Assembly: GCA_964487495.1 (NCBI GenBank)
Contig: CAZAPL010000033.1
Coordinates: forward strand, 1-58,480
Direction of reading: 5' to 3'
From: an uncultured Gammaproteobacteria bacterium
GTDB taxonomy: Bacteria; Patescibacteriota; Microgenomatia; CAYGWK01
DNA: 58,480 nt
The translations under genes and the position numbers were made by a program. Below, piece after piece: positions 9,227-33,305 of this stretch. Each line of letters begins with the position of its first letter. Positions within the stretch are counted from its first letter, which is position 1. The notes beneath the pieces are model-generated. The model saw only the letters and a list, made by a program, of their open reading frames with translations. It had not been told where the DNA came from and made no database searches.

Positions 9227-10491
9227 AAGAGATAAAGATTTTTAAAATCGATTTTCTCTTCAAAAGTATATCCTGGTAATTTAATTTTTCCCGGATCTCC
9301 ACTTGATATTACCATAATTTTTTCTTTATTAGGAAGAATTTTTATAATATCTTTTTCTTCCATTAGGGCGGTTCCTGTGTAAAAAGGAAGAGACCCTTCG
9401 GGGAGATAAATTGGAGCATTAAGACCATAATATTTTGATTCAAAAAGATGGTGAGCCTGGTCATTATAGTTAATTAAGCCATATTCTGGTTTAAGATTTT
9501 CTTTAACGTAATTTGCAAGCTCTCTAAACGGTCTTTTAGTTGGATGGGTAAAATAATGCCAATCAATAACCATTAAAGAGAAAATAACTAGAAAAATAAA
9601 AGTTAAGGAAAAAGTTCTTCTTGGTGATACCAAAATAAGAATAATTGGAGGAACACAATAAAGAAGATATCGATCATAGAAGATTGAAGATTTTACCAGA
9701 GAGATAGAAAAGGTAAGAGTAATGGGGATGATTGCCCAGGATAAAAGAAATAAATCCTTTCCCCAATCTTTAAATTTTCGGAAGAAAAGAATAAATAATA
9801 TTCCTAAAAAAACGGCCTTTTGGAGAAAATGTTTTTCTGTTCCCAATAAAAAATTTCCAAAAAGATCAATAACCGATTTAAAGGTTGGTTTGCTTAGCCA
9901 AAACCCACTTTGGACAAGAGAGGTTTGATAGTAAAGAGGGTAAAGCCAAGGAAGATATCCTAAGCCAATGATTAAATAAGGCTTAAGAGAAGAGAAAAAA
10001 TTTTTTCTGGTGATACCTTTTATTATCCAAAATAATTGGGTAAGAACTAAAAAAATAGAAAAATGATGAGTGTAGAGAGCGGCAAGGGTAGAAATGATAT
10101 AAAGGGTCCATTTCTTTTTAAGAAAAAAATACATCGATGAAGTCGTGGTTAAAAGAAGGAGGGAATACATTCTCCCCTCAAATCCATATCGGAAAAGAAA
10201 TGGGTTGAGAAAGGCAAGTAAGAAAGTTAAAAAGGGATATTTTTCTTCCTCCCAGAGACTTTTTCCGATTAAGAAGACGAAGAAGGAGGCAGCAAGAAAA
10301 AAGAGAAAAGAAAGGCAACGGATAGATGGTTCGCTGGTCCCAAAAATTTTCATCCAGATATGGAGCAGAAGATAGTATAAAGGCGGCGAGGTATCCTTTG
10401 AGACAATGGTTATAATTTTCCAAATTGGTTTTACTGCCAAAGTGGCAGCCCAGGCTTCATCACCCCAAAGCGAACTATCAAATTGCGTCAT
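9187..10491 (-). CDS. GT-C fold glycosyltransferase (ArnT/PMT-like, GT39/GT83)
   Basis: SLWGDEAWAA...DTSPPLYYLLLH motif, polytopic, with a C-terminal soluble domain. Confidence 0.7.
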   Translation of the reverse strand: MTQFDSSLWGDEAWAATLAVKPIWKIITIVSKDTSPPLYYLLLHIWMKIFGTSEPSIRCLSFLFFLAASFFVFLIGKSLWEEEKYPFLTFLLAFLNPFLFRYGFEGRMYSLLLLTTTSSMYFFLKKKWTLYIISTLAALYTHHFSIFLVLTQLFWIIKGITRKNFFSSLKPYLIIGLGYLPWLYPLYYQTSLVQSGFWLSKPTFKSVIDLFGNFLLGTEKHFLQKAVFLGILFILFFRKFKDWGKDLFLLSWAIIPITLTFSISLVKSSIFYDRYLLYCVPPIILILVSPRRTFSLTFIFLVIFSLMVIDWHYFTHPTKRPFRELANYVKENLKPEYGLINYNDQAHHLFESKYYGLNAPIYLPEGSLPFYTGTALMEEKDIIKILPNKEKIMVISSGDPGKIKLPGYTFEEKIDFKNLYLLWFKKENTNSHCG

Positions 10492-10499
10492 TTTCTAAA

Positions 10500-11984
10500 T
10501 TATACCTTTTCTGTTACTCGATACTCAAGATATTTTCCAAGCATAAGCCTGGTATGGGCGTCAAGTCCTGGCATTACCCCAAAAATAAATCCGGAAAGAG
10601 GCATAAGGATAAATTCAAAAGGAATAAGAAGGGCACGAAAACGGGGAAAGAATTTTGGTCTTTTTGGTCTTTGTCTGGCATCAATAATTAAGATTATCAG
10701 GAGAAAAGAAAGACAAATCGTTAAAATAAAACTAGAGATTTTTGGTAGGGTATATCCAATGATGGTTCTTGAAAAATCTGGAACAAAAAGGGTGGGAAGC
10801 GTGATCCCCAACGTTATCCAAAACCAGTTAATAGGTGTTAAAAGATGATCTTCAAGAAGACGAATGAGTCTTATTGTTTTATCCCAAAATGGTATTCCTT
10901 TGGTAGTAAAGTATTTTTTAATTACATATGGATCGTCAGAGACTCCCCAAAGCCATCTTTGGTATTGTCTGTAAGTATTTAAAATTGTTTGCCAAGGAGT
11001 ATGGCTTTCGGCGGCATCGGCATGGAGAGGAAGATAAATAGGCTCAACCTCCACCTTCCCTTTAAGTTTAAAATAAGCCTTAAAGAAAATATGATAATCT
11101 TCGGGAATTACCGTTGGATCCCAGTAGCCAATTTTATCCATTAGAAAAAAAGAGGTAGAGTAGTTTTGGCAATTTATTAGTCTGTCGCTTCTTGAGAGGA
11201 TAGCCCCATTCCAAATAGTTGAAAGGGTATTAACCACCCTCGTTAGTGCCGGGAGTTTCCAGAAATTATTATAAAAGAAAACTGCTGGTTGCCAAAAGAG
11301 GAAATATCTTTTGGGAGAATCCAAAAAACGGAAAGAAAGATAAGAAAAATGTTTGGGGTGGAAACTATGATCCGCATCGCAACTGGTTAAGGTCATATAT
11401 TTTATATCGTATCCTCTTTTATTAACTAATTCTTTTTTAACCCAAATAGCAGCATATCTTTCGTTTGAATGCTTACCAACAGTTTCTTTTGGGCTTAGAT
11501 GGTGGACAGTAACAAAAAAATTAGCAAATTTTTTAGCAAATTTTTTTTCAAGAATTTTTGCTTTTTTTGGGGCTTCCGGATCTCTTGCTTCAGTTGCAAG
11601 AACAACCGTAATTTGATTTAAGGGGAAGTCCTGGTTGGATATGCTTTTTAAAGTTCTTTCCAATATATGGAGGGGTTCTTTATAGGTGGTTATTATAATA
11701 ACATGGTGAATTTTCTGCCAATCAGGAAAAAATTTTGCTTCATCAAGCCAATTCAACGCCTCCGAGGCCTTGATTCTAACGTGTGAGATGACCGCGGTAA
11801 TGGCAAAAGTAATTGATTTGTAAAACCAGAAGACGTCAAAAAAAATAACAAAATAGGCCATATAAAGAGGAATGGTTAAACTACCAACGAAGTAGAAAGT
11901 GATCATGCCCCAGGAAAATAATCCCGGAAAAATTTCAAGGAGTCGCTGAATTTTTTTGTCATATTTTAAAAAGATTTTTCGCAT
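10500..11984 (-). CDS. membrane-embedded processive family-2 glycosyltransferase (synthase type)
   Basis: TM segments at both ends. VVLATEARD and SCDADH aspartate motifs plus QYQRWLWG (QxxRW) are typical of processive beta-glycan synthases. Confidence 0.7.
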   Translation of the reverse strand: MRKIFLKYDKKIQRLLEIFPGLFSWGMITFYFVGSLTIPLYMAYFVIFFDVFWFYKSITFAITAVISHVRIKASEALNWLDEAKFFPDWQKIHHVIIITTYKEPLHILERTLKSISNQDFPLNQITVVLATEARDPEAPKKAKILEKKFAKKFANFFVTVHHLSPKETVGKHSNERYAAIWVKKELVNKRGYDIKYMTLTSCDADHSFHPKHFSYLSFRFLDSPKRYFLFWQPAVFFYNNFWKLPALTRVVNTLSTIWNGAILSRSDRLINCQNYSTSFFLMDKIGYWDPTVIPEDYHIFFKAYFKLKGKVEVEPIYLPLHADAAESHTPWQTILNTYRQYQRWLWGVSDDPYVIKKYFTTKGIPFWDKTIRLIRLLEDHLLTPINWFWITLGITLPTLFVPDFSRTIIGYTLPKISSFILTICLSFLLIILIIDARQRPKRPKFFPRFRALLIPFEFILMPLSGFIFGVMPGLDAHTRLMLGKYLEYRVTEKV

Positions 11985-19087: not shown

Positions 19088-19900
19088 TTAATTAAAGAAG
19101 GGAATTTTAGAGAAAAACTTGCTCGCCAATTTTAAAAATGGATTATAGAATTTTGTGAAAGAAAGGGGATATTCAATTTCTTTCCCGCCAAAACTTTTTT
19201 TAAAATGGGTAAATCCCTGCCAGGATTTTATTGGAGACCTTTCATCATAAATTCCTTCAAAATCAAAAATTTTGCATCCCTTTCTTTTTGCTAGTTTTAT
19301 TGCTTTAAAAACTACTAAGTATGACGCAGAAAGTTTTCGTCCTTTGGATGTTGAGGCGGCATAGAAATAATAGGCGGTTTTGTCAAAGATTAGAATTAAA
19401 GCCCCGGCTATAGGTTTAGATGATTGCTGATAGGCAAGGAGAAGATAGGCATTTCTACCAAAAGAGCGATAAATACTTCTGATTTCTTTGCCAAAAGGGA
19501 TCCAAAAACCGCGTTTAAAGGCATTTTCGTGCCAGATTTTAACGAAGGCTTCGATATCTAAAGATTGTTTGACTAAGATTTTTTCTCTTTCCGCCTTTCT
19601 AATTTCATATCGACAATCTTTTTTCATTTGTTTTAAAATTTCCTTTTCTGATTTTTTCAAATCTAACCTGAGGGTTTTTGTGGGAGAATAATTTAATTGG
19701 ATAGCAAAAGCCTTATATTTTTTGGCTAAATTTTCAAGTTCTCCTGTTGAAATTTTTACCCCTGGTCTTTGAATTTTTATAAAGTTGCCAAGGATTGGAA
19801 GATGACGGATATAAATTTGAACCCCCTTTTCTTTCTTAACAGTCCAGCCAATTTTTTCCATAAAATGAGCAAATTCAGGAGATTGACGTAGATCTTTCAT
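19088..19900 (-). CDS. FemAB-family peptidoglycan interpeptide-bridge aminoacyltransferase (short paralog)
   Basis: 270 aa with a GNAT-like FemAB pattern (AYYFYAASTSKGRKLSASY...FDFEGI). It lies adjacent to a longer paralog. Confidence 0.7.
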   Translation of the reverse strand: MKDLRQSPEFAHFMEKIGWTVKKEKGVQIYIRHLPILGNFIKIQRPGVKISTGELENLAKKYKAFAIQLNYSPTKTLRLDLKKSEKEILKQMKKDCRYEIRKAEREKILVKQSLDIEAFVKIWHENAFKRGFWIPFGKEIRSIYRSFGRNAYLLLAYQQSSKPIAGALILIFDKTAYYFYAASTSKGRKLSASYLVVFKAIKLAKRKGCKIFDFEGIYDERSPIKSWQGFTHFKKSFGGKEIEYPLSFTKFYNPFLKLASKFFSKIPFFN

Positions 19901-19909
19901 AAAAAACCT

Positions 19910-20929
19910 TTATATTGGCAATCTTGACCTAGCCCTTAAAAACAGCCAGCGAATTTTATCGGTTAAATTATAAAGGAAATAAAGATGAGGGTTTAATACC
20001 AGGTCATAAGTACCGATAAATTCAATAAGTTTTGGGGCAAAGCCAAGTTTGAAGCGGTGGAAACCATACCAAGGATTTAAAGGAGAAGGATTTGGTCCTG
20101 GTGTCCCCCAAAGATCAAAGATTTTGCATTTTTTTCTCTTCCCAAACTGAATTGCCTCCCACATCATCGCATAAGAGGGCATTACTTCTTTATGTTCCCG
20201 AGAAGAACCTCCATATGGATAATATAAAATGTTATTAAAAACAAAAAGAACCCAGGAAACGAGAGGTTTTCCTTTATAAGTGGCCAGCAGAAGATGAGCA
20301 ATTCCTGCAGGATAAAGAGTTTCCCACATCTTTCGGTGATAATCCTTAGTGTGAGAGTAAAATCCTTGTCTTTTGGTAGTTTCAAAAAGAAGTTCTAAGT
20401 GAGTTTCGAAGGCTTCGGTTGAGTTGTTTTCTTTAACTTCAACTCCGTATTTTTGAGAAAGACGTAGGTTATAACGAGTTTTAGGATGCATTGCTTTTAA
20501 GAGTTCTTCATCGTTTTTTTCAAGATCTAGCCAGAAAGTATATTTTGGGAAATTTGGTTTTCCTGGTCTACATTTGTTTTTTAAAAGGAATTGGTTAATA
20601 TTTTCGAATCCAGATCCTCTTTGAACCGCCGGTTCCATTTTTACAAAGATAGCATTTTCTTCTCTCCCAATTTTTTCCAAGGCTTGAAGCATTAACTTGT
20701 CGGGGAGAGGCCCTCGGGGTAAATAGATTATGGCATATTTAGTATGAGGGAGAGGATGAATTGTTATTTGAAATCCAGATATTAATTTATTTTCTTCAAA
20801 AACCCCTAACCTTATTACCTTTTGCCCAATTTTTTTTCTGAATTCTCCCCATTCCCAAGATTGGAGAGGGTGGGAAACCAAAGAATTAAATTTTTCTTTT
20901 TCTTCTTCTAGAACTTCGCGAATAATCAT
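19910..20929 (-). CDS. FemAB-family peptidoglycan interpeptide-bridge aminoacyltransferase
   Basis: 339 aa. HPLQSWEWGEFR start, HPKTRYNLRLSQK and YYPYGGSSREHKEVMPSY...FDLWG are typical of FemX/FemAB. Confidence 0.8.
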   Translation of the reverse strand: MIIREVLEEEKEKFNSLVSHPLQSWEWGEFRKKIGQKVIRLGVFEENKLISGFQITIHPLPHTKYAIIYLPRGPLPDKLMLQALEKIGREENAIFVKMEPAVQRGSGFENINQFLLKNKCRPGKPNFPKYTFWLDLEKNDEELLKAMHPKTRYNLRLSQKYGVEVKENNSTEAFETHLELLFETTKRQGFYSHTKDYHRKMWETLYPAGIAHLLLATYKGKPLVSWVLFVFNNILYYPYGGSSREHKEVMPSYAMMWEAIQFGKRKKCKIFDLWGTPGPNPSPLNPWYGFHRFKLGFAPKLIEFIGTYDLVLNPHLYFLYNLTDKIRWLFLRARSRLPI

Positions 20930-20931
20930 TT

Positions 20932-22752
20932 TCAGTATTCCGTTTCTATAATTTCAAAAAGATTTTTAGGAATTTCCTCGATGAATCTTGAAGGGTAATT
21001 TTCAAGGAAAGTACCGAAATATAATCTCTTTCTGGCATAAGAAAGAAATAGTTTTTCTTTTGCCCTAGTTATTGCAACATAACAGAGTCTTCTTTCTTCT
21101 TCAAGTTCATAAAGATCAAAAAGAGAACGCGAATGAGGAAATAATCCTTCTTCCATCCCAACAATAAAAACAACCGAAAATTCCAAACCTTTAGCAGCAT
21201 GAGCAGTCATAAGACTAACTGCATTTTTGGAATCTTTGTTTTTAGGAGAGTTATCAGGCAAGGATTCTTTTTGAATTAAGGAAACATTTTCAAGGAAAGA
21301 AATTAAATCGGGGAATTCGCTGGCGACTGAGCGAAGTTCTTTAATGTTTTCTAATCGATAAAAATCTTCCTCAAATTGCGGATTATAAAGTTCAAGATAA
21401 TTTGTTTCCTTGATGATTCTATCTAAAATCTTTAGCGTATTTATTTTTTTTATTTCTTTCTTTTTTAAGTCTTTAACCAATTCTAAGAATTTTTCAGTCC
21501 TTTTTTTTCCTAATTTTTCAATTCTCTTATAAGAAATTATATCATTTTGGTTAACTAGGAAGCGGAGAAAGGCTAAGACGTCCTTGATTTCTTTTCTTTC
21601 GTAGAATTTTGTTCCGCCAACTAAGATGTAAGGGATTCCTGCATGCAGGAAGGCTTCTTCGATTACTCTTGATTGGGCGTTAGTTCGGTATAAGACAGCA
21701 CATTCTTTTAGGGGATAGGATAATTTTTTTATAGTTTTAACGATAAATTGGGCTTCGTCGTTTTCATTTTTGGCTTCATAAATTTTGATATTTTCGCCTT
21801 CGGGATTTTTGGTCCAAAGTTTTAGGATTGGGTGGGATTGATTATGCTTTATCACCTCAAAAGCAGCATCCAAAATTTTCTGGGTTGATCGGTAATTTTG
21901 TTCAAGATTGATTATTTTTAAATCAGGGAAGTCTTCTTTTAAATACATTAAATTTCGGAAATCTGCTCCTCTGAATCCGTAGATTGATTGACTGGCATCG
22001 CCTACTACACAAAGATTGCGGAATTTTTGGGCTAAAAGTTTAGCCAAAACATATTGAACTCGGTTTGTGTCTTGCCATTCATCAATTAAGATATATTGAA
22101 AACGATTTTGGTATTTCTCTAGTACTTCTTGGTTATTTTGGAAAAGTTTAACTGTTTCCACTAAAAGATCATCAAAGTCTAAAGCATTTTGATTTTTAAG
22201 GAGTTTTTGATAAAGAGGATATACTCTTAATACCTGTTCTTGAAAAGTACCACGGGCAAATTTTGGATATTCTAATGGAGAGATAAGTTCATTTTTGGCC
22301 TGAGAGATGGAATTAAGAAAAGCACCTGGGCTGAATGTTTTTTGAGAAATATTAAGTTTTTCCATTGCTTCTTTGATTGTTTCTAGTTGGTCATTTTCGT
22401 CAAAGATTACAAAATTAGAAGGAATTCCGATTTTATGACCATCGTTTCGTAAAATTTTGGCGCAAAAAGAATGAAAAGTGCCAGCAAAAGGGGGGTTTAA
22501 ATTTTGGGTTTCATAATTCATTTTTAAAATTTTGCTAATTCTTTTTTTCATCTCTTCTGCGGCTTTATTGGTAAAGGTTAAAAGGAGGATTTTTTCCGGA
22601 TTTATTTTCTTTTCAGAGATAAGATAGGCTGCTTTATAGGTTAAAGCACGAGTTTTTCCCGAGCCAGCACCGGCTAAGATAAGCAAAGGGCCTTCTCCAT
22701 AAAGGACTGCTTCTTGTTGAGAGGGATTTAAAAAAGATATAATATCATTCAT
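20932..22752 (-). CDS. pcrA: UvrD/PcrA-type DNA helicase (compact form)
   Basis: MNDIISFLNPSQQEAV...AGAGSGKT, IDEWQDTN, VGDASQSIYGFRGA, NYRST, TAHAAKGLEFSVVF and YVAITRAK motifs. Start placed at the Met giving the canonical N-terminus; the ORF-track start is 22794. Confidence 0.88.
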   Translation of the reverse strand: MNDIISFLNPSQQEAVLYGEGPLLILAGAGSGKTRALTYKAAYLISEKKINPEKILLLTFTNKAAEEMKKRISKILKMNYETQNLNPPFAGTFHSFCAKILRNDGHKIGIPSNFVIFDENDQLETIKEAMEKLNISQKTFSPGAFLNSISQAKNELISPLEYPKFARGTFQEQVLRVYPLYQKLLKNQNALDFDDLLVETVKLFQNNQEVLEKYQNRFQYILIDEWQDTNRVQYVLAKLLAQKFRNLCVVGDASQSIYGFRGADFRNLMYLKEDFPDLKIINLEQNYRSTQKILDAAFEVIKHNQSHPILKLWTKNPEGENIKIYEAKNENDEAQFIVKTIKKLSYPLKECAVLYRTNAQSRVIEEAFLHAGIPYILVGGTKFYERKEIKDVLAFLRFLVNQNDIISYKRIEKLGKKRTEKFLELVKDLKKKEIKKINTLKILDRIIKETNYLELYNPQFEEDFYRLENIKELRSVASEFPDLISFLENVSLIQKESLPDNSPKNKDSKNAVSLMTAHAAKGLEFSVVFIVGMEEGLFPHSRSLFDLYELEEERRLCYVAITRAKEKLFLSYARKRLYFGTFLENYPSRFIEEIPKNLFEIIETEY

Positions 22753-23695
22753 GGGCGTTTCCATTTTACCAAAAAAGAGGCTCTTTTTGATCATAGAAAT
22801 TTTCTTTTTAATTATTTTTTTTCTTTTTTCTTCTGCTTTTAGTTTTTTTTATTTTTATCAAGGAAAAGAGAAAGTAAATCTTCTTCTTTTGGGCGAATCA
22901 GGCCCTGGACGCGAAGGGGCAACATTAACGGATACGATGATATTTGCTTCTGTTTCTAAAAAGGGAATTATTCTTCTTTCTATTCCTCGGGACATTTGGT
23001 ATCAACCCCTTCAGACAAAGATTAATTCTCTAAATTTCTATGGAGGATTACCCTTGGTCAAAAGGGTGGTTGAAGAAATTTTAGGGCAAAAAATAGACAT
23101 GGTTTTTTTAGTCGATTTTGATTCTTTTGTAGAATTTATTGATGTTTTAGGGGGGATAGATATATATGTGGAAAGAGCCTTTGATGATTTTAAGTATCCA
23201 ATCCCCGGCAAAGAAAACGACCTTTGTAATGGAGACAAAAGTTTCTCCTGCCGATACGAACATATTCATTTTGATTCAGGCTGGCAGCATATGGACGGAG
23301 AAACAACTTTAAAGTTTGTTCGTTCACGTCAAGCCGAAGGGGAAGAAGGAACAGATTTTGCGCGTTCTCTCCGCCAGCAGAAGGTGATTGAGGCTGTTAA
23401 ATCGAAAATTTTTTCTTTTAGTTTTTTGCTTGATTATCAAAAGATTTCTTCTATTTTGAAAATTTTTAGAGAGAAAATCAAAAAGGATATTGGCTCAGTA
23501 AATGATTTGTTTTCTTTAGGGAAAATATTGATTTATCCTTCCTCGAGAAAGGCAAGTTCTTTTGTTTTAGAAGGTAAAGATTCCTCTGGAGAGTTTTTAT
23601 ATCATCCAAAATTTCATTATTCAGGGCAGTGGGTTCTTTTACCTGTTGGCGGAAACTGGGAGAAAATTCAAAAATTTGTTTCCTCAATTTTATAG
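22751..23695 (+). CDS. LytR-CpsA-Psr (LCP) family cell-wall glycopolymer transferase
   Basis: N-terminal TM, then NLLLLGESG...TDTMIFASV...LSIPRDIW and VRSRQAEGEEGTDFARSLRQQ, typical of LCP. Confidence 0.85.
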   Translation: MGVSILPKKRLFLIIEIFFLIIFFLFSSAFSFFYFYQGKEKVNLLLLGESGPGREGATLTDTMIFASVSKKGIILLSIPRDIWYQPLQTKINSLNFYGGLPLVKRVVEEILGQKIDMVFLVDFDSFVEFIDVLGGIDIYVERAFDDFKYPIPGKENDLCNGDKSFSCRYEHIHFDSGWQHMDGETTLKFVRSRQAEGEEGTDFARSLRQQKVIEAVKSKIFSFSFLLDYQKISSILKIFREKIKKDIGSVNDLFSLGKILIYPSSRKASSFVLEGKDSSGEFLYHPKFHYSGQWVLLPVGGNWEKIQKFVSSIL

Positions 23696-25716
23696 ATTTT
23701 AGTTTTCCCGCTTTTAAAAATAATTTTCCCAATTTTAGAGAATTTTTCTTCTGAAATTTTATATTTTTCTCTTTCTTTGCTACCAATGAAAATATAAGAG
23801 ATATTGTATTTTTTTAATAGCGCTAAAGTTTGGTTTTTATCATTTGTTTCGTAAATTGTTTGAACTTCACTTGCTCTTTTTCCTGGTTCTTCAAAACCCC
23901 CTCGCCAAAGCCATTCGTGAACTAACCATCCTTGGATTGTTGGCAGTCCTGTTAAAGAAGAAACGCGATTAAATAGAGTGTAGCTGTCACCTGCTGCCTC
24001 AAGAACTTTTGGTTGGCCATTTATGTTTTTTTTAAGCCAAAGAATTGCTTGGTAATCATCAGGAGATGAATTTTTAAGGAAGGAGATTCCGTTTAACCCT
24101 TGGTATTTTCTTAAACCTTCGTAGTAGGAAAGAATCGCAAAACGGGGATAAATTCCTAAAATGAAAAAGAGAAAGAATAAAATAACAAAAGAATAGAAAA
24201 TTTTCAAGGCCTTGTTTTTAATTTTTTTCAATATTTTGTAAATAATGTAGAAGGTACTTAGATAAAACATTACAAATGCTTGATAAGTAAATTTAAACAT
24301 GGTGTTTGCTCTTTGATAAGAATGGATATAAATGTCTTTAAAATAAAAAACTTCAGGGAAGAGGATTAGAAACCAAGAAAAAGCAAAAATGGTGGCGATG
24401 AGGATTTCTGTTTTTTGGAAACCCCCTTTTTCTTTTACCACTTTAATTAAATAAACTAAAAAACTTAAAGTTAAAAATAAAGGGAACCCCCAAAGAACCA
24501 AAAGCATCCAAAAAGGGGAATGAAAATCTGTTAACCTTATTCCTTGAGTAAGATTTTTAAAATTAAGGTGAAAGGGTAAGGCAAAAATTAGCGAACCGGC
24601 AAAAACGGGAAAGACTAAGGAAATGGTTTTGGTAATTGTTTTTAGAGAGAAACGATTTTTTAAGTAATTAAAAACTAAGATAAGAAGGCTAAACAAAAGA
24701 GTATAAATGGCAAAATCCCAGGCGTTAGTCATATAAAATATAGCCAGAAGAAGAGATAAAAAAAGGAAAGATGGCCAAAAAACTTTTTCTGAATTTTCGA
24801 AAATAATTGCCAGAATTAGGCCTAAAAAGAGCAAGACATTGGGGAGATTTAAAAGATGACCATGGAGATCGGCAACAACGAAACTATAGATTGGGAATTC
24901 ATGAATAGTGTTATCGGCGGCCCCAAATTTTTCGACAATAAAACGAGTGGCATCAGGATACCAATAGCCTTTATAGTTGCCATGGTTTATTAAATACCAG
25001 AGGGGGTGCAAGTTGCCGCCGAGGGTGAGCAAAAAGGCAGTCAATAGCCCGATAATTAGCGATAATTTTTGGTTTTCTTTTTTTGAGTTTAGAAAAACAA
25101 GATTTGCGCCTATTGAAAATGAAGCGCTGAAACTTAAGGCAAATAGACTGGCAATTAGCAGATTATAAGTAATTGCTGAATCAATAGTGGAAAGTTTGGT
25201 TAGGACTGCAGAAACTAGGTGGCCAAAGTAGTAATAATTTATACTTTCTCCAGCAAACCACATATCCTGAGGCGGGAAGTATTTACTTCTAAGAATTGAA
25301 TTAACAAAGCCAAAATCCATAAATTTTTCCAATCCTTCAATATTTGGTTGAAATCCGCGGATACAAGACCAGAAATTTAAGGTTAGCAAAAAAATTATTT
25401 CCTCAAGGACAATAGTTTGCCATTGATTTTTAATTTTTTGGGAGAACTCTTTTTTGAAAATTTTGATAATTAAAAGATTGGGAAACAGCAAGACAATGAT
25501 AATAAGTAAAACCGAGGAAAAAGAAAATGGCAAAATTTTTAAACTCCCCAAAAGCCAGGTTAAATAACTAACCATTAAAACCGCAATTATTTTTGAAAAT
25601 CCATATCCTGAGTCAAAAAAATTTTTAAAGAACCACCAGGTTAAAGGAAAAAAGATTATTCCCAATCCAAAAAGTAAAAACCACCAATAAAAAATTAAAA
25701 AAAAGTCATTTGTCAT
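23668..25716 (-). CDS. DUF2298 (YYY-motif) polytopic membrane protein
   Basis: 682 aa with many TM segments and the signature INYYYFGH. The soluble C-terminal domain contains the motif GWLVHEWLWRG. Confidence 0.7.
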   Translation of the reverse strand: MTNDFFLIFYWWFLLFGLGIIFFPLTWWFFKNFFDSGYGFSKIIAVLMVSYLTWLLGSLKILPFSFSSVLLIIIVLLFPNLLIIKIFKKEFSQKIKNQWQTIVLEEIIFLLTLNFWSCIRGFQPNIEGLEKFMDFGFVNSILRSKYFPPQDMWFAGESINYYYFGHLVSAVLTKLSTIDSAITYNLLIASLFALSFSASFSIGANLVFLNSKKENQKLSLIIGLLTAFLLTLGGNLHPLWYLINHGNYKGYWYPDATRFIVEKFGAADNTIHEFPIYSFVVADLHGHLLNLPNVLLFLGLILAIIFENSEKVFWPSFLFLSLLLAIFYMTNAWDFAIYTLLFSLLILVFNYLKNRFSLKTITKTISLVFPVFAGSLIFALPFHLNFKNLTQGIRLTDFHSPFWMLLVLWGFPLFLTLSFLVYLIKVVKEKGGFQKTEILIATIFAFSWFLILFPEVFYFKDIYIHSYQRANTMFKFTYQAFVMFYLSTFYIIYKILKKIKNKALKIFYSFVILFFLFFILGIYPRFAILSYYEGLRKYQGLNGISFLKNSSPDDYQAILWLKKNINGQPKVLEAAGDSYTLFNRVSSLTGLPTIQGWLVHEWLWRGGFEEPGKRASEVQTIYETNDKNQTLALLKKYNISYIFIGSKEREKYKISEEKFSKIGKIIFKSGKTKIYKIEETNF

Positions 25717-27379
25717 AAGAAAGAATGTTTTTTAAGGTTTGGCTTGAAAAATGGCGAGTATTTTTAAAAATTATGACTTTTGGATGGTCATAGACTTGAA
25801 AGGTTTCTTCGCTTTTATCATCGTTTATGGTTAGACCAAAAAGATTAGGGTAAGAAGAAAATTCGGCAATTTGACTGTAGCCTAATTGGCCTGAAAACAA
25901 AAGTTTGTAATAACGACTAGTTATAGGATATTTTTCCGGAAGATTTATTAAGGTTCCGTAAAGGCGGCGGCTGTTTACGATAATATAGTCTGCCTGAGAG
26001 AGTTTTTCTGAATAATAGTTAATTTTTTGAACTCCGTCTGAGTCATAAATGGTTAATTGTTCAATTTTGTATTGATTTGGGTGAAAAGGAGGAATTTCTA
26101 TTGGTAAACTGTCATCCCAATGTTCAGTTAGTAATTTTTCTCCTTTAGGGATATTTTGATAAATCCAGCGTGAGGCAGTTATTCTTGTTGATTCTTTAGC
26201 ATAAATTGAGAAAAAGGAAATTGCCCAAAAAAAAGTAGTAGTTGCCCCCAGGAAAATTAGGATTTTTCCTGCTTTGGGGAAATGTTTTCCAATTTCGTCT
26301 ATGAACCAGGAAGAAGAAATTATTAAAAATGGCAAAACAGGGAGCATGTAACGGATAAATTTAGTGTGCCATGAGCCAACATAAAGAAAATAGGAAATGG
26401 GGAAGGAAAGAAAAACGAGAAGTTTTTTGTTGCCATTTTTAATGGTCTTTATAAGGATAAGAATCGTCCCTAGAATTCCTAAAAAGGCAATTGGCCCCAT
26501 TTGCCAAAAAAAATTTTTAATTTGGAAAAGATAAGGAAGAGTTTTCTCGAATTGGAGAGTATAAACTACTCTTAGTTTGCCTGTGGCAACACCTGATTCA
26601 TAAATCATTGATTCCCAAAATTTAGGGAAGTCTAAAAAAACATAAGGAGAAAAAAAGGAAAAGACCACAAAAGCTAAAAAAAGAGAAAATAAAAATTTTA
26701 AATGGTTTTTTAAGTATTTAAAGTGATAAAGAAAATGGGCAGCTGAAGGAATTATCAAAAAAGCAAGAGATGATATTTTGGTTGCTGTTGCTAATCCCAG
26801 AATGGTCCCTATTTTAAAATAATTTTTGATTAGCGGTTTCTCGATTATTTCAAAAGTAAAATTTAAAACTAGGAAAAGCCAAAAAACAAGCATACTTTCG
26901 GTTACGCCAAAATGGGCGGTTTGGATAAGAGAAGGGCAAAAGGCAACTAAAAATGCTGATAAAAGGCCAATTTTCTCATTCCAAATTCTCTTGGATAAAA
27001 GAAATACCAGCAAAATGGTAAAGGTTGAAAGAAGAGCAGAGACACTTCGGCCAATAAGATTAATATGGGCCCAATTGGAAATCCAATTTTTATCTCTAGT
27101 TATTAGGAACAAAAAATCGCCAATTGCTCGATAAAGATAAATTGGAAAACTGCCATAGGCAAAAAATTTTGGGTTTAACTGGTCAAAAAAATGGATTCGA
27201 GAAACGGCAAGAGCAATATTTCTCTCATCGGGATGAAAGAAATGACCTTCGTCCCAGTTTAAATTATAAAAGCGCAAGAAACCACCAGAAACAGTAATAA
27301 TTAGTAATAAGTAGAGTGATTTTGATTTAAGGGGTTTAAAAATTTTCAATCTCATTGGCAATTTTTTCTCCTTCTTCAA
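25706..27379 (-). CDS. GT-C fold glycosyltransferase (GT39-like)
   Basis: 557 aa, polytopic, with FHPDERN and PIYLY loop motifs and a soluble C-terminal domain. Its start overlaps the upstream flavoprotein gene. Confidence 0.65.
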   Translation of the reverse strand: MKKEKKLPMRLKIFKPLKSKSLYLLLIITVSGGFLRFYNLNWDEGHFFHPDERNIALAVSRIHFFDQLNPKFFAYGSFPIYLYRAIGDFLFLITRDKNWISNWAHINLIGRSVSALLSTFTILLVFLLSKRIWNEKIGLLSAFLVAFCPSLIQTAHFGVTESMLVFWLFLVLNFTFEIIEKPLIKNYFKIGTILGLATATKISSLAFLIIPSAAHFLYHFKYLKNHLKFLFSLFLAFVVFSFFSPYVFLDFPKFWESMIYESGVATGKLRVVYTLQFEKTLPYLFQIKNFFWQMGPIAFLGILGTILILIKTIKNGNKKLLVFLSFPISYFLYVGSWHTKFIRYMLPVLPFLIISSSWFIDEIGKHFPKAGKILIFLGATTTFFWAISFFSIYAKESTRITASRWIYQNIPKGEKLLTEHWDDSLPIEIPPFHPNQYKIEQLTIYDSDGVQKINYYSEKLSQADYIIVNSRRLYGTLINLPEKYPITSRYYKLLFSGQLGYSQIAEFSSYPNLFGLTINDDKSEETFQVYDHPKVIIFKNTRHFSSQTLKNILSYDK

Positions 27380-28643: not shown

Positions 28644-29273
28644 TTAGAAAATAAGAATTATTGCCAGCCCAAGGAGTAAAGTGGTAATTCCTCCAAAGAG
28701 AATTCCTAAAGTGGGAGTTAAAAAGCCGGCAGAGGGAAGTTGGGGTGAGGTTGGAGTTGGGGTGGGAGTGGTTGGTCGTGGAGTGGGAGTTGGAGTCGAA
28801 GTTGGTCTGGGGGTTGGAGTTGGAGTTGGAGTGGGAGTTGAAGTTGGTCTTGGAGTTGGAGTTGGGGTTGGTCTTGGAGTTGGAGTTGGGGTAGATTCTA
28901 CTGGACCGAGAGGAGGGGGGGGGCAAATACAGTCTTCATCAAGGGGGCAATCTTCGTTATAACAAATTAATACTTGGCTACAGACTTGGCCAGGCGGACA
29001 GGGTGTTCCGCATTTTAACCCTTCTTGACAATCGGTGTCTTTTGAGCAACCTTCTCGACAACCTTTTTTTTCTATGGATATTTCGAATAATTTGGTGCAT
29101 TGAGGAGCTGGTGTTTCTTCGTAAACTGCAGGGGCTGGTTGGGGGACAGTTGGGGCTATTGGTTGTTTTTTTGTTTGGTAAAGTTTTAAAGCGGTAAAAA
29201 TGGCAACCGATGTTAAAATCAACGTAGCAAAAGAAATCAAAACTAAATGCCAACTTTCTTTTATTTTTTCCAT
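28644..29273 (-). CDS. exported Cys-rich protein with (TP)n-RP repeat linker and C-terminal LPSAG sorting-like signal
   Basis: N-terminal TM/signal anchor, 11 Cys within about 60 aa and a TPTPTPRP repeat. It ends in LPSAGFLTPT followed by a hydrophobic tail. Confidence 0.7.
   Translation of the reverse strand: MEKIKESWHLVLISFATLILTSVAIFTALKLYQTKKQPIAPTVPQPAPAVYEETPAPQCTKLFEISIEKKGCREGCSKDTDCQEGLKCGTPCPPGQVCSQVLICYNEDCPLDEDCICPPPPLGPVESTPTPTPRPTPTPTPRPTSTPTPTPTPTPRPTSTPTPTPRPTTPTPTPTSPQLPSAGFLTPTLGILFGGITTLLLGLAIILIF
28743..28895 (-). repeat. imperfect short tandem repeat encoding the Thr-Pro/Arg-Pro linker
   Basis: The plus strand reads reiterated GGAGTTGGAGTT / GGGGTTGG / GGTCTTGG units. 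It generates spurious ORFs in other frames and on the other strand. Confidence 0.85.
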
Positions 29274-29276
29274 TTT

Positions 29277-30374
29277 TTATTTCCAGCCTGAGTTTTGGTT
29301 ATAAACCATTGCTTCAATTTTGTATTTTCCTGATTTTCCAAATGTATAGGTGATATAAAACTCTCCATTTTGGTTTTTGATTGTTGTTTCTTGCCAAGCG
29401 CCAACCTGACCATCGACTGTTATCCTAAAGCGAGCCTTGGTGATCTTTTGATTGTTTGTTGCTGATCCTTTAGTGGCAAGATAATAATTTTGGTCGGGTT
29501 TTAGAAATGGCTCTGCAACTTCTTTCCAATCAGTTTCGTAAATTTTGACATATTCACATTTGACTGTTATAGGGGGGGTTGGGGTTGGAGAAAGAGAAGG
29601 AATTGTTCCGCTAACAAATCTTACTTTTAGATTATCTCGACAATCATCTTTGTCTTCATCTTTGTCTTTGCCAACAAAGGTTTTAACGATAAGAGTTCCT
29701 CCGACTTTACCGCCATTAAATTTGTTGAATAAATCATTTAAGTTAATGACGTATATTCCTCCCTGGGTTTTTTGAACGGTAAAATCATGTCTGCAGTTTT
29801 TATCACACCCACAAAAACCGTCATAGGCCAAAAAACCATTCCCATAATTGCAATTATCAGTATTTACATAATTTGGTGAATATTCAGCCCAGCGATAGAT
29901 CCCTTGAGGAAGGGGGCCTTGGTTGTCCATAAAAGAGGCAAATTTGAAAAGATAAATACCATTTTCTTGGGGGAATTGATCAATTTTTAAGTATTTATTA
30001 GTTTCCGCTGGGTTGCTTCCTGAGCCTTCACTCCAGCCCTGAAGGGTTAAAACTTTAGTTGCCATTTCACCTCCAGTTATACCTCCACAAGTAACTGTTG
30101 CCTTTTCTCTTATTTCTTGTCTTTGTTGGGTTAAATAAACAGCCAAGGGGATTGAGGCAAGGAGAAAAAATACACCAACTGAAGCCAAAATTATTTGCTT
30201 TTTAGACAGTCTTTTTGGCGGTTTTTTTAAAGATATTTCTTCCGGGTTTTTTAATTGGGCAGGAGGAGGAATACCCGGCGGAGGTTCTGGAGGTGGTGCA
30301 CCTGGAGCAGGAACAATAACTTCTTCCTTTTTATCATCTTGCGGTTGACTTGGATTGTTAGGCAAATCGTTCAT
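29277..30374 (-). CDS. type II membrane protein with Pro-rich cytoplasmic head and Cys-containing beta-rich ectodomains
   Basis: PAPGAPPPEPPPGIPPP N-terminus and a single TM. The ectodomain has CNYGNGFLAYDGFCGCDKNC, a short PTPTPP linker and an Ig-like C-terminal domain. No family recognised. Confidence 0.6.
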   Translation of the reverse strand: MNDLPNNPSQPQDDKKEEVIVPAPGAPPPEPPPGIPPPAQLKNPEEISLKKPPKRLSKKQIILASVGVFFLLASIPLAVYLTQQRQEIREKATVTCGGITGGEMATKVLTLQGWSEGSGSNPAETNKYLKIDQFPQENGIYLFKFASFMDNQGPLPQGIYRWAEYSPNYVNTDNCNYGNGFLAYDGFCGCDKNCRHDFTVQKTQGGIYVINLNDLFNKFNGGKVGGTLIVKTFVGKDKDEDKDDCRDNLKVRFVSGTIPSLSPTPTPPITVKCEYVKIYETDWKEVAEPFLKPDQNYYLATKGSATNNQKITKARFRITVDGQVGAWQETTIKNQNGEFYITYTFGKSGKYKIEAMVYNQNSGWK

Positions 30375-31762
30375 GATTTAGTTTTCCCATAAATTAAACT
30401 TAAAAAAAATAGACCTCCAAAGAGAAGGACTATTCCCATTGTAAAGAGGAGAAAGGTTGGTGTCAAGTAGCCAGAAGTAGGAATGCCGCTTTCTGTTGAG
30501 GGTCGAGAAGTTCGTGGAGAGGGAGTAGGAGAAGAGGTAGCGACAGGAGTGGGAGTTAAGGTTAGAGTAGGTGTTGGAGTTAGAGTGGCTGAGGGGCTGG
30601 CGGTAAAAGCCGGGAGGGTATTTTCGCCGGCAGCCAAAACAGTAAAGGTTCTGGAAATTGTTTTTCCTCCATAACTAACTTTAATAGTATGGGTTCCTGG
30701 TGCGAGGTCCTCTGGAGGAATAAAATTCCATTCTCCATTTTTATTTGTTTTGACGGTTCCTGTATAAATTGGTGATTCAATGGTAATCTGGAGAGTTTGG
30801 TTTGCAGGACCACTTCCTATAATTTCTGGTCTTGAGGTGGCAACTTTTTCGTTTTGCTCCGGGCTTATTATGGTTATTTGATTTGGACTGGCTCCTCCTG
30901 TGGAAATAGGAATTTCTTCAAAAGGGAATTTAGAGGAAGGAGTCGCCTGATTTTCGGATTGACTGGGAGTGGAGGTAGGAAGTAAGGGCGTTTTTTCATT
31001 TGATTGTAAAGAGGAAGTTTGTCGAAAATCGTAGTTTCTCCCTAAAGTAATTTCTGGAATAGGGTTGTCATTTTTAGTGGTAGTTATTATGGTTGATGCC
31101 CCCAAAGAGGCTCCTTGAACAAAAATCTCTAAAATTTGGGCTTCTTTATCGTAGGTTGCATAGTTTGAAAGATTAGAAGATAAAGCGGTGTTTAAGGGGA
31201 TAACGAAACTTCCTGAAGAGCGAACCAGCGTTGATTGAGGAGTTGTGTTGGTAAGGCTTAAATAAACAATTACTCCTTCTGCTGGGGTACCGTCTTGTTT
31301 GAGAATTATACCCGAGACAACATCGCTTGGGGGAGGGGTTCCGGGGATGACTGGGGCGGTAGTTACCTCATAAGGTTTCCCGGAATTATCAAAAATTTTT
31401 CCTCCTGAACTAATTTTGAAAAAATAAATAGTTTTTGGCTTTAGATTTTTTAAAGTCACATGATGAGTTTGGAAGTTACCGGTACTGCCAGATACTTGAT
31501 CTCGATCGTCGGCAAAGGTTTGTCCCAAAGAAGGCGTTTCCCCAAATTGGACAAATCCGCTTGTTTCTTTATCAGTAATCCAAGAAACGGTAAAGGAAGA
31601 AGAAGAAATATTGGTAATTTTTACTTGGTTAGGAGTAATTTCTGGAGAGGCTCTTAAAAGAAATACTTGGTTGTTTTTAATAAGGAACACCCCACTAAAA
31701 ATACCAATGACTAAAAAGAAAATTGCCAAAATTGTTGGAATTCTTTTTTCTTTATTAAACAT
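30371..31762 (-). CDS. exported multidomain surface protein (FN3-like, CarboxypepD_reg-like, Ig-like) with PT linker and IPTSG sorting-like signal
   Basis: Signal anchor and FTVSWITDKETSGFVQFGE...HHVTLKNLKPKTIYFFKI (FN3 / purple-acid-phosphatase N-domain-like), then VSGIILKQDGTPAEGVIVYL. It ends in IPTSGYLTPT plus TM plus GKTKS. Confidence 0.7.
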   Translation of the reverse strand: MFNKEKRIPTILAIFFLVIGIFSGVFLIKNNQVFLLRASPEITPNQVKITNISSSSFTVSWITDKETSGFVQFGETPSLGQTFADDRDQVSGSTGNFQTHHVTLKNLKPKTIYFFKISSGGKIFDNSGKPYEVTTAPVIPGTPPPSDVVSGIILKQDGTPAEGVIVYLSLTNTTPQSTLVRSSGSFVIPLNTALSSNLSNYATYDKEAQILEIFVQGASLGASTIITTTKNDNPIPEITLGRNYDFRQTSSLQSNEKTPLLPTSTPSQSENQATPSSKFPFEEIPISTGGASPNQITIISPEQNEKVATSRPEIIGSGPANQTLQITIESPIYTGTVKTNKNGEWNFIPPEDLAPGTHTIKVSYGGKTISRTFTVLAAGENTLPAFTASPSATLTPTPTLTLTPTPVATSSPTPSPRTSRPSTESGIPTSGYLTPTFLLFTMGIVLLFGGLFFLSLIYGKTKS

Positions 31763-31764
31763 TT

Positions 31765-32100
31765 TTACATCCCCTCAGTTTCAGTTATAGTAGGTGTCTC
31801 GGATTCTGCTTCTGCAATAGTAGGTGTTGGTGTCGGCATTAAGGTTGGAGTTTTAGTCGGCGTGGAAGTTGGCGTTGGCAAAATGAATTCTTCTTCTTTT
31901 ATCTGAAGACGTTTTGAGAGATTTTCTAAAGTTTCCATATCAACTTGAGGATTAAGAGGCGTAAGCTGCTCTTGAACATTTTTTGGAATTTCTACCTTAT
32001 TAAAGGCACGATAGACGTCAAAGCCAATCCAGGTTAAGATAGTAATGGCAGTTAAGATGGCAATATAAAATAAGTTTTTTGAAAATTTTGATTCTTTCAT
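31765..32100 (-). CDS. small membrane-anchored protein with PT-rich tail
   Basis: 111 aa with an N-terminal TM and a C-terminal PTPTSTPTKTPTLMPTPTPT stretch. Confidence 0.55.
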   Translation of the reverse strand: MKESKFSKNLFYIAILTAITILTWIGFDVYRAFNKVEIPKNVQEQLTPLNPQVDMETLENLSKRLQIKEEEFILPTPTSTPTKTPTLMPTPTPTIAEAESETPTITETEGM

Positions 32101-32103
32101 AGT

Positions 32104-32748
32104 TTATTCTAAGAAATAAAATTTTCCTGAAATATTTAGGTTTATAGCTTCTGTTTCTCCACCCTCTGTACTTTCTTTTTTGGAAAAAGACGAGGAATCA
32201 ATAGTAATAATTCTTCTCAGTTGGTTTAAGGAATCAAGGAATTTTTCTAAATCTTCAAAATTTCCGTTTAAAGAAAGGGAAAAAGATAAATTTTGAAGAG
32301 AGGAGGTTTTCTTTGTCTCTTTTTTTGTAGGATCTTTGCCAAGAAGAACAGAAGGCTCAAAGGAAAGGGAATTGATAGTAAGGTTATTCTTTTGGGCTAA
32401 AGTTTCAAACTGGAGAGTTACTTGAGAAAGAGAAGGAGTTGGGGGGATGACTTCGTCAATTAAGGGTAAGTACGGTTCGGCAAGAGTATAATTTGATTGG
32501 GCAGAGGAAAGGGTGTTGATCTTTTTTTGTAATTGATTATTGATTTCTTTTTGGGTTTGGATTTCTCTATATAAAGAAACTATAGTAATGAGTGTGGGTC
32601 TTATGGCAAAAACAGCAAAAAAAGAGACAGATAAAAGAGTTAAGATCAAGCCGGTGTAGACAACCGTTTCTTTTTTTTGATAAATTTTTGGAATTTCTTT
32701 AAAATAGCGACTATAGCGATGATATTCAGTTAAGGTTCTGGGTATCAT
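32104..32748 (-). CDS. PilO-like bitopic membrane protein
   Basis: Short cytoplasmic head, one TM, a coiled coil (QKEINNQLQKKINTL) and a ferredoxin-like C-terminal domain (LSLNGNFEDLEKFLDSLNQLRRIITID). It follows the PilN-like gene with a 4-nt overlap. Confidence 0.55.
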   Translation of the reverse strand: MIPRTLTEYHRYSRYFKEIPKIYQKKETVVYTGLILTLLSVSFFAVFAIRPTLITIVSLYREIQTQKEINNQLQKKINTLSSAQSNYTLAEPYLPLIDEVIPPTPSLSQVTLQFETLAQKNNLTINSLSFEPSVLLGKDPTKKETKKTSSLQNLSFSLSLNGNFEDLEKFLDSLNQLRRIITIDSSSFSKKESTEGGETEAINLNISGKFYFLE

Positions 32749-33305
32749 TTTTGTTTTATCCCTCCAGGTAAATATTTTGCGGTTAAACTAAATTTAATTC
32801 CTATTTCCTCAGGCTTTTTAAAAATACTTGAGAGATTAACATCGGTAAATTCTGGCGAATTAGAAAAACCAGCGACAAAACCTCCAAGCCCTTCTTCTGA
32901 AAGTGCTAATCCGTTTATTTTTATTTCCTTCGTTTCCTTTTCGTAATTTAAAGTGGAGAAAATAATATCCCCAGGAGTAAAAGAAGAAATAGTAGAAATT
33001 ATTGAGGTAATTTTGACTTGATCTTTTTCAAGTTCCTTTATCTTCGAAATTTTTTCCTGAAAAGATTTAAATTCTTTTTCAAAACCTGAATAAGAATTTA
33101 TAATTGCTTGTTTTTGTTTAATTTGCTCATAAAGATTAGTAAGATCTCGATCTAATTTAAAACGAGAGATAAAAGCGATAATAACCACTAATTCGGTAAA
33201 AATAACGATCCATCTACCAACTGAAAGAAGCCAAAGTAAAAATTTACCTAAAGGTTTCTTTTCAAATTCTTCCTTTGGTATGAGATTAATTTCTTTGTTG
33301 GGCAT
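32745..33305 (-). CDS. PilN-like bitopic membrane protein
   Basis: N-terminal EINLIP (the INLLP-type PilM-binding motif), one TM, a coiled coil and a C-terminal alpha/beta domain of PilN size. Confidence 0.6.
   Translation of the reverse strand: MPNKEINLIPKEEFEKKPLGKFLLWLLSVGRWIVIFTELVVIIAFISRFKLDRDLTNLYEQIKQKQAIINSYSGFEKEFKSFQEKISKIKELEKDQVKITSIISTISSFTPGDIIFSTLNYEKETKEIKINGLALSEEGLGGFVAGFSNSPEFTDVNLSSIFKKPEEIGIKFSLTAKYLPGGIKQK

Follow-up and report, generated by a model that had tools for sequence, protein, structure and literature searches.

Two surface proteins encoded in a stretch of DNA from an ultra-small, uncultured Microgenomates bacterium (58,480 nucleotides, G+C content 35%; termed "the window" in the following) end in tails that are best read as a relaxed form of the LPXTG-type sortase signal, with Ala or Ser in the position where Thr normally sits. 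The observations behind this reading concern the anatomy of the tails, their conservation, their portability between proteins, their strictly C-terminal location, their continuity with LPXTG tails, and a sortase that is both present and conserved. Microgenomates belong to the candidate phyla radiation (CPR, or Patescibacteria), which comprises a large share of bacterial diversity; these bacteria are attached to other cells and almost uncultured, and the display of their surface proteins is largely unknown.

The two proteins comprise 209 and 463 amino acids (aa), respectively, and are organized as follows (coordinates refer to the window; TM, transmembrane).

28644-29273, minus strand: 209-aa surface protein with an N-terminal TM helix, one Cys-rich module, a Pro/Thr (PT) linker and a putative C-terminal sorting tail
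29187-29246, minus strand: N-terminal TM helix of the 209-aa protein
28740-28895, minus strand: PT linker of the 209-aa protein
28725-28739, minus strand: LPSAG pentapeptide of the 209-aa protein, candidate LPXTG equivalent with Ala at position 4
28710-28724, minus strand: FLTPT of the 209-aa protein, putative spacer and helix cap
28647-28709, minus strand: C-terminal hydrophobic segment LGILFGGITTLLLGLAIILIF of the 209-aa protein, with no basic residues after it
30371-31762, minus strand: 463-aa surface protein with an N-terminal TM helix, an fn3 domain, a second beta domain, a Big_13 domain, a PT linker and a putative sorting tail
30485-30505, minus strand: RPSTESG of the 463-aa protein, representing in the window another conserved element that immediately precedes the pentapeptide
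30470-30484, minus strand: IPTSG pentapeptide of the 463-aa protein, candidate LPXTG equivalent with Ser at position 4
30455-30469, minus strand: YLTPT of the 463-aa protein, putative spacer and helix cap, with the predicted membrane helix starting at P435
30374-30454, minus strand: hydrophobic segment FLLFTMGIVLLFGGLFFLSLIY and basic end GKTKS of the 463-aa protein

A preliminary description of this DNA had noted a shared motif and a TM segment at the C-terminus of both proteins, and the open reading frames (ORFs), coordinates and motif letters were all confirmed. The 209-aa ORF ends in ...SPQ-LPSAG-FLTPT-LGILFGGITTLLLGLAIILIF-stop (last residues ...AIILIF), and the 463-aa ORF in ...RPSTESG-IPTSG-YLTPT-FLLFTMGIVLLFGGLFFLSLIY-GKTKS-stop. 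As described, the motif in both proteins lies behind a Pro/Thr-rich linker and in front of a single hydrophobic segment; it is 31 (209-aa) or 37 (463-aa) residues away from the stop, and the hydrophobic stretch following it measures 21-22 residues in both tails. Both proteins also possess an N-terminal hydrophobic helix suited for export. The stretches covering the two tails, TSPQLPSAGFLTPT and ESGIPTSGYLTPT, represent substrate candidates. Pfam assigns PF16656, PF00041 (fn3) and PF19077 (Big_13) to the 463-aa protein, and its AlphaFold model (mean predicted local distance difference test score, pLDDT, 78) features a disordered stretch before Big_13, a Pro/Thr linker that is likewise disordered, and a helix at the C-terminus spanning residues 435-462; Foldseek matches of the model are strings of fn3/Ig domains. 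The motif DNA of the two copies is identical at only 21 of 36 bases (15 differ), with different codons at 9 of the 10 motif positions, and hence, the tails are alike at the protein level and do not reflect a recent DNA copy. A six-frame scan of the window yielded no third tail of this kind.

Compared to the pentapeptide L-P-x-T-G, the window tails fit at positions 1, 2 and 5 and deviate at position 4. The deviation forms part of a graded series, which becomes apparent among the homologues of a Big_13 protein from a related locus (L001, 4002-5204) that itself ends in GS-LPATG-NVSLT, a helix and KK. The tails of these homologues include canonical LPATG, LPQTG and LPVTG, the LPXTA-like forms IPVTA, LPTTA and LPVTA, and the variants LPDAG, LPSAG, LPEAG, LPDSG, IPVSG and IPSSG. 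In 42 non-redundant tails position 4 is occupied by Thr (25), Ala (10) or Ser (7), and position 5 by Gly (37) or Ala (5). Near-twin tails differ at position 4 only, such as IPVSG in P0152 versus IPVTG in P0156 and P0163, and two relatives (P0131, P0133) carry LPATG-FLTPT, i.e., the residues that follow the pentapeptide in the window placed behind a canonical one. Canonical tails of relatives score above the cutoff of the curated LPXTG_anchor model TIGR01167 (20.2, 19.8 and 17.1 bits versus 15.9). Given the graded exchange of Thr, Ala and Ser, the window tails appear to be variants within a lineage-wide LPXTG-type family rather than a separate signal. The proposal of a non-canonical sorting signal thus holds with regard to the sortase-substrate architecture, which is found on unrelated surface proteins, yet it was overstated as a new signal, since the tails grade into LPXTG.

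The preliminary description had further regarded G[FY]LTPT as a conserved extension of the motif, a view that the relatives do not sustain. Across the families, the residues after Gly follow the general form x3-P-T (TDLPT, ISLPT, ISWPT, FTLPT, VSTPT, YLTPT), and in the AlphaFold model of the 463-aa protein P435 is the very first residue of the C-terminal helix, which places the pentapeptide immediately outside the membrane. As the modelled helix starts at the Pro of PT, FLTPT and YLTPT would not constitute a separate signal: PT is taken to cap the N-terminus of the membrane helix, with the three preceding residues acting as a spacer, and the exact match between the two window proteins is probably in part coincidence. 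In many Firmicute signals, a Pro likewise follows LPXTG at a short distance (LPxTGExxNP...). Since PilN/PilO-like genes head the cluster, this region was also considered as a "G|F" peptidase site resembling that of type IV prepilins; this was rejected, as a C-terminal helix approached from the outer face has the wrong topology for PilD, and Glu at +5 is absent.

More than 590 homologues of the 463-aa protein were retrieved, and the best 120 of these, 116 of which retain the tail pattern, underlie the following counts. The consensus reads R-x-S-[ML]-P-S-T-E-x-G-[VI]-P-x-[S/P/T/A]-G-[Y/N/F]-L-T-P-T-F, followed by a helix and a basic end with a mean of 2.2 Lys/Arg in the last 12 residues. Within the pentapeptide, Pro is present in 116/116 and Gly in 112/116 tails, position 1 is mainly Val (74) or Ile (32), and position 4 is Ser (72), Pro (31), Thr (6), Ala (5) or Val (2). 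Farther downstream, P435 is invariant, T436 nearly so, and G443 within the helix is invariant. Immediately before the pentapeptide, the element R-x-S-[ML]-P-S-T-E-x-G is also well conserved (in 116 tails: R 107, P 112, S 105, T 113, E 92, G 108); the values for Pro, Ser and Thr (105-113/116) come near those of Pro and Gly in the pentapeptide and exceed the other pentapeptide positions. Possible roles of this element are a further recognition site, a site of glycosylation or part of a doubled motif. Three relatives (P0158, P0162, P0169) feature canonical VPTTG or VPQTG beside the helix and retain the upstream element as P-[SD]-T-S-S-G, which points to the helix-proximal pentapeptide as the counterpart of LPXTG.

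In the 209-aa family, about 25 syntenic orthologues retain [LIV]-P-x-A-G-x3-P-T and the helix, with pentapeptides such as LPEAG, LPTAG, LPPAG, LPSAG, LPKVG and IPQAG. An alignment of 13 Ala-type tails (12 orthologues and one cohesin protein) shows L and P in 12/13, A in 12/13 and G in 13/13 sequences, next to a linker that varies. The orthologues harbour 0-4 Cys-rich modules in front of the same type of tail, contain GG inside the helix and end right behind it (...LLLAL/F) without any basic residue. The length of the PT linker is polymorphic: one protein of 267 aa (P0175) is near-identical to the 209-aa protein except for 58 additional linker residues.

The tail is not restricted to these two families. 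It occurs on unrelated passengers, including a cohesin-domain protein (L003, 4093-4902; ELPEAG-IPTPT), another Cys-repeat protein (L039), a 370-aa protein (L083), cohesin-like proteins with LPDAG and proteins with LPKSG, and the very LPSAG of the window is also found in the unrelated proteins P0148 and P0186. A 10-residue regular expression matched 26 times in the ORFs of 34 related loci (188,268 aa), and 25 of these matches reside in C-terminal tails with a helix. When 1.84 billion representative proteins were searched exhaustively with a profile, 22 matches were significant, and all of them end at the last residue of the protein; this search informs on position and diversity and is not a census. 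A profile built from the 13 Ala-type tails retrieved two fragments only from a 5.8-billion-protein index, a size at which a 40-residue profile is underpowered. Among genomes of the GTDB, ELPEAGxxxPT is matched at least 120 times. Of the matches listed, 14 are followed by a TM segment and a stop; they have a G+C content of 0.38-0.51 and, where titled, derive from Woesebacteria/Patescibacteria or known Microgenomates loci. About 106 other listed matches lie mostly in higher-G+C genomes of other phyla, lack the tail context and reflect chance. The names attached to the homologues are Shapirobacteria, Woesebacteria, Amesbacteria and Gottesmanbacteria. The tail is thus widespread, portable and always C-terminal, and not confined to two paralogues; such a confinement would, according to the preliminary description, have spoken against a signal. 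Several loci with the Microgenomates cluster or sortase synteny (L004-L016, L024, L030-L031, L034) are deposited under the titles "uncultured Gammaproteobacteria" or "Pseudomonadales" and probably represent mislabelled low-G+C CPR bins.

The candidate processing enzyme is encoded in the window itself, 25.8 kb from the tail of the 463-aa protein, in agreement with the sortase gene previously noted there.

56325-57017, plus strand: sortase with an N-terminal TM anchor
56742-56753, plus strand: FGHS with the catalytic His142
56943-56957, plus strand: TLITC with the catalytic Cys211, followed by the catalytic Arg220
54091-56322, plus strand: 743-aa membrane protein abutting the sortase gene, without a C-terminal sorting tail

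The protein matches the sortase models PF04203 (88.2 bits, cutoff 26.6) and TIGR01076 (56.7 bits, cutoff 39.35), and His142, Cys211 and Arg220 are invariant in 13 orthologues. Likewise invariant in these orthologues is an EQRYDDSY block directly before TLITC (window 56916-56957), which to our knowledge has not been described for sortases of the classes A-F. None of the class models A-F or GN reaches its cutoff (class C, 59 bits versus 160; class D, 48; class E, 47; class F, 25), and among solved structures, sortases of class D/C come closest, at only E 1e-10. A single-sequence AlphaFold model of the enzyme was not used (pLDDT 42).

The sortase family is reported to be almost universal among Microgenomates (Meheust et al., PMC6744442), and its locus is syntenic: the genes ftsK, a helix-turn-helix protein, a 123-aa protein, alaS, the 743-aa protein and the sortase are followed by a short downstream ORF, which by its sequence appearance is taken to be ruvX. 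The core alaS-743-sortase is preserved in 11 of 12 sortase loci, and the remaining genes in most. A fixed synteny without a substrate gene nearby is what would be expected of a general housekeeping sortase, and the gene indeed looks like a conserved, single-copy housekeeping gene. Two loci with this sortase family in one metagenome-assembled genome (CAYTZO01; L030 and L034) may indicate two copies or a mixed bin. The sortase and the cluster containing the 463-aa gene occur together in the window, in PFLE01 (L012 and L025) and in VGLL01 (L009 and L027). The protein abutting the sortase measures 720-800 aa in relatives and consists of a cytoplasmic N-terminal half, one TM segment and an outer half with a weak Baseplate_J match; searches of the 743-aa protein gave no sequence match in the PDB, and none in Pfam for the N-terminal half. 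It may be a functional partner of the sortase.

Taken together, the tails probably are the Microgenomates form of the LPXTG signal, and the sortase would cleave these proteins and anchor them to the wall. The pairing of the enzyme with the tails, the scissile bond and the acceptor are predicted from the sequences. Following export through the N-terminal hydrophobic segment into the membrane, the C-terminal helix starting at the conserved Pro-Thr would retain the protein there and present [LIV]-P-x-[A/S/T/P]-G four or more residues outside the bilayer. Cys211 would then attack the bond that joins position 4 to Gly, after which the protein would be transferred to a peptidoglycan cross-bridge, the existence of which is suggested by two FemAB genes in the window. 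Position 4 is relaxed in this lineage, accommodating Thr, Ala, Ser and sometimes Pro.

Several findings weigh against this reading. The window tails match no curated sorting-domain model of NCBIfam or Pfam, even at E-values up to 10, and the 209-aa family lacks the basic C-terminal end that is a defining part of classical sorting signals. Pro occupies position 4 in 31 of the 116 tails of the 463-aa family; Thr at this position contributes to the oxyanion hole in SrtA and SrtB, and we know of no precedent for Pro as the residue preceding the sortase cleavage site (P1). The true cleavage site in the 463-aa family is uncertain, because a second, better conserved MPSTE-x-G lies upstream. Some distant orthologues keep TPT and the helix and lose the Pro or the pentapeptide altogether (NVVAGSTTPTY in L014 and L015; LEQAG/LQQAG in 209-type proteins). 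A Gly inside the helix at a fixed distance, as is more typical of signals for intramembrane enzymes, recurs seven residues after Thr in several families (G443; GG in the 209-aa family), and helix packing is the only explanation that can be offered for it. No tail-bearing gene was detected beside the sortase in the 12 loci searched. Moreover, the ORF sample is biased, since the loci were obtained via the 463-aa family and the sortase.

A more far-reaching reading appears rather unlikely at present: either the EQRYDDSY-TLITC sortase would have a relaxed or shifted P1 specificity (Ala/Ser/Pro/Thr) and not need a basic signal, or a separate CPR enzyme would read the Ala-type tails. If either holds true, a novel sortase or a novel CPR enzyme would define a new branch of prokaryotic C-terminal sorting systems.

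About as improbable is that the tails are uncleaved membrane anchors, in which P..G...PT and the in-helix Gly fulfil a structural role as hinge, cap or packing surface, perhaps against PilN/PilO partners. Both genes belong to a conserved operon headed by genes for bitopic PilN/PilO-like proteins, and an anchor of this kind would be in keeping with the invariant Gly, the scarcity of Thr at position 4 (with Pro in about a quarter of the 463-aa family), the missing basic end of the 209-aa family, and the orthologues that drop the pentapeptide Pro and retain TPT and the helix. However, the same tail is carried by unrelated proteins outside the operon and grades into canonical LPXTG tails that pass a curated model. 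A hinge also leaves unexplained why L-P-x-A-G is near-invariant beside a freely varying linker, and the conserved sortase would be left without other visible substrates.

Less probable still, a different enzyme (an intramembrane protease or an exo/archaeosortase-like protein) might read at least the Ala-type tails that terminate in ...LLLAL/F and have no basic residues, with the sortase serving canonical LPXTG proteins only. The distribution of basic ends lends some colour to this alternative: of the 40 Ala-type tails that do not belong to the 463-aa family, 35 have no Lys/Arg in the last 12 residues, compared to 11 of 25 Thr-type (14 with a basic end) and 6 of 15 Ser-type tails, and of the window proteins the 463-aa protein possesses a basic end (GKTKS) and the 209-aa protein does not. 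Moreover, the Gly resides at a fixed depth of the helix, the Thr/Pro linker recalls PGF-CTERM substrates, and GT-C/PMT_2 and DUF2298 genes adjoin the cluster. Yet, there are Thr-type tails that lack a basic end (P0131: LPATG...LGLAL) as well as Ala-type tails that have one, and therefore, the tail types form a continuum rather than two classes. Moreover, no PGF-, PEP-, GlyGly-, VPDSG- or other CTERM model is matched at E-values up to 10, and no exosortase, archaeosortase, rhomboid or CPBP protein was found among the approximately 30 proteins scanned of the 58-kb window or in the annotated neighbourhoods. Hence, of the two options in the preliminary description, a sortase or an exo/archaeosortase substrate, the sortase-type layout stands, whereas for the latter neither a model match nor an enzyme in the window was obtained.

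An origin by chance or as a by-product of low-complexity Pro/Thr-rich sequence, for which the PT-rich linkers before both tails and the linker-like "TPT" might speak, is excluded, as the window contains two copies of the back-translated motif P-x-x-G-[FY]-L-T-P-T where 100 shuffles gave an expectation of 0.00, and as the motif is conserved in hundreds of orthologues and appears at the extreme C-terminus only.

Known sorting systems share individual features with the window tails. The LPXTG system (TIGR01167) has in common with them L/I-P and Gly at position 5 of the pentapeptide, a Pro-containing spacer, one helix, adhesin-like proteins behind a linker and a sortase in the genome; it is unlike them in that position 4 is Ala or Ser here, the tails remain below the thresholds, the 209-aa family has no basic end and the sortase fits none of the classes A-F. 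The departure at position 4, which is real in both tails, is not unprecedented. In 10 staphylococcal SssF/SasF-like proteins position 4 is Thr (4), Ala (5) or Ser (1), and the Ala form SasF (LPKAG) is reported to be associated with the wall (PMC3398289); the surface of S. haemolyticus also carries LPXAG and LPXSG proteins (PMC7137321). As in the lineage studied here, Thr, Ala and Ser alternate within one family; in staphylococci, however, these are rare exceptions next to mostly LPXTG substrates, whereas here two core families of a CPR class have Ala or Ser as their conserved residue.

The class E signal LAXTG of Actinobacteria represents a lineage-wide shift tied to a sortase class (PMC5148588), and a few relatives here likewise do without Pro at position 2, as in LAETG (P0161), LEEAG (P0157) and LEQAG (L008, L011). 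Yet the shift in class E affects position 2 and not position 4, and the window sortase scores 47 bits versus 160 on the class E model. The PGF-CTERM/archaeosortase A system and the PEP-, GlyGly- and VPDSG-CTERM signals resemble the tails in the succession of Thr/Pro linker, signature and helix and in the in-helix Gly, and several members of the 463-aa family even contain a literal "VPDSG". They differ in the lack of any model match or visible cognate enzyme for the tails and in their Arg/Lys clusters at the end of the signal, as well as in the Gram-positive-type wall genes of the window; a Microgenomates genome is reported to have no outer-membrane secretin (PMC7143001). An identification of the "VPDSG" orthologues as VPDSG-CTERM proteins was rejected, as there is no model match and position 3 varies freely. 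Finally, the tandem [ML]PSTE-x-G and [VI]P-x-S-G before one helix in the 463-aa family is similar to the doubled-motif LPXTG anchor NF033073, but the tail of a relative attains only 12.1 bits versus 48 on that model, the window tails have no NCBIfam match and the upstream element ends in Glu. What sets the tails apart from the known systems is that the variant residue is conserved, Pro occurs in this position, many tails have no basic end, no class accommodates the sortase and the models miss the tails.

No description of CPR sortase motifs was found in the literature. A paper on the CPR "Pam" pilus (10.64898/2026.03.03.709456) mentions an fn3 protein that has a C-terminal helix and names no sorting motif; no link to the tails was established. 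The present analysis provides the Microgenomates sortase, reportedly near-ubiquitous, with predicted substrates and a motif, [LIV]-P-x-[T/A/S]-G-x3-P-T plus a helix, and connects two putative sortase-type substrates with an envelope gene cluster headed by PilN/PilO. Since current models miss the tail, proteins that carry it are filed as "hypothetical" or "fn3 domain-containing". If Ala, Ser or Pro at P1 is indeed tolerated by the enzyme, it would be of practical interest for sortase-mediated ligation and could yield a naturally orthogonal enzyme; to date, specificities for LPXSG and LAXTG have been obtained through directed evolution. If it does not, the tails would amount to a lineage-specific flavour of a well-known system.

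The tail-bearing genes are embedded in a conserved minus-strand run, rpsT, PilN-like, PilO-like, 111-aa, 463-aa, 365-aa and 209-aa, which is followed beyond the 209-aa gene by genes for an amine oxidase, PMT_2/GT-C and DUF2298 membrane proteins, LytR_cpsA_psr, UvrD and two FemAB proteins.

32745-33305, minus strand: PilN-like gene (PF05137), heading the conserved cluster
32104-32748, minus strand: PilO-like gene (PF04350), heading the conserved cluster
31765-32100, minus strand: 111-aa cluster member with an N-terminal TM segment and a PT-rich end
29277-30374, minus strand: 365-aa cluster member between the two tail genes, with an N-terminal TM segment, weak Ig-like matches and no tail
22751-23695, plus strand: LytR_cpsA_psr gene (Pfam), wall-building context
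20932-22794, minus strand: UvrD-type helicase gene, merely part of the conserved gene order
19088-19900 and 19910-20929, minus strand: FemAB-family genes (Pfam), wall-building context

The order rpsT-pilN-pilO-small-463-x-209 and the neighbouring genes are likewise annotated in two related loci (L001, L003), and 463-type and 209-type tails lie side by side in most of the loci L004-L019. The two FemAB genes, LytR_cpsA_psr, MurJ and an M23 peptidase show that a Gram-positive-type wall is built. The FemAB, LytR and MurJ genes point to a wall with possible cross-bridges only, and the linkage of the surface proteins to such a bridge is a prediction. By analogy to FemXAB in S. aureus, the FemAB enzymes could supply the nucleophile of the cross-bridge.

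Genes for GT-C/PMT_2-like glycosyltransferases and a DUF2298 protein are situated near the genes for Thr/Pro linkers (window 23668-27379 and 7781-11984), an arrangement that is conserved in relatives and suggests O-glycosylation of the linkers. Many surface proteins of the lineage, with or without the tail, share a charged motif, [QK]-x-R-Q-[EDQ]-[IL]-R-x-x-A(A), behind the N-terminal TM segment (e.g., VYLTQQRQEIREKA and VYLVKQRQEIRKRA). In the window it corresponds to positions 30099-30128, i.e., residues 83-92 of the 365-aa ORF (29277-30374), and it recurs in relatives (P0123-P0173, P0179, P0180, P0193, P0195). By a strict regular expression, 24 of 51 proteins contain this motif, which is unlike a classical signal-peptidase site and may be a lineage-specific export or anchor feature. 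At the beginning of the window (655-1143), a 162-aa integrase-core (rve_3) fragment is encoded.

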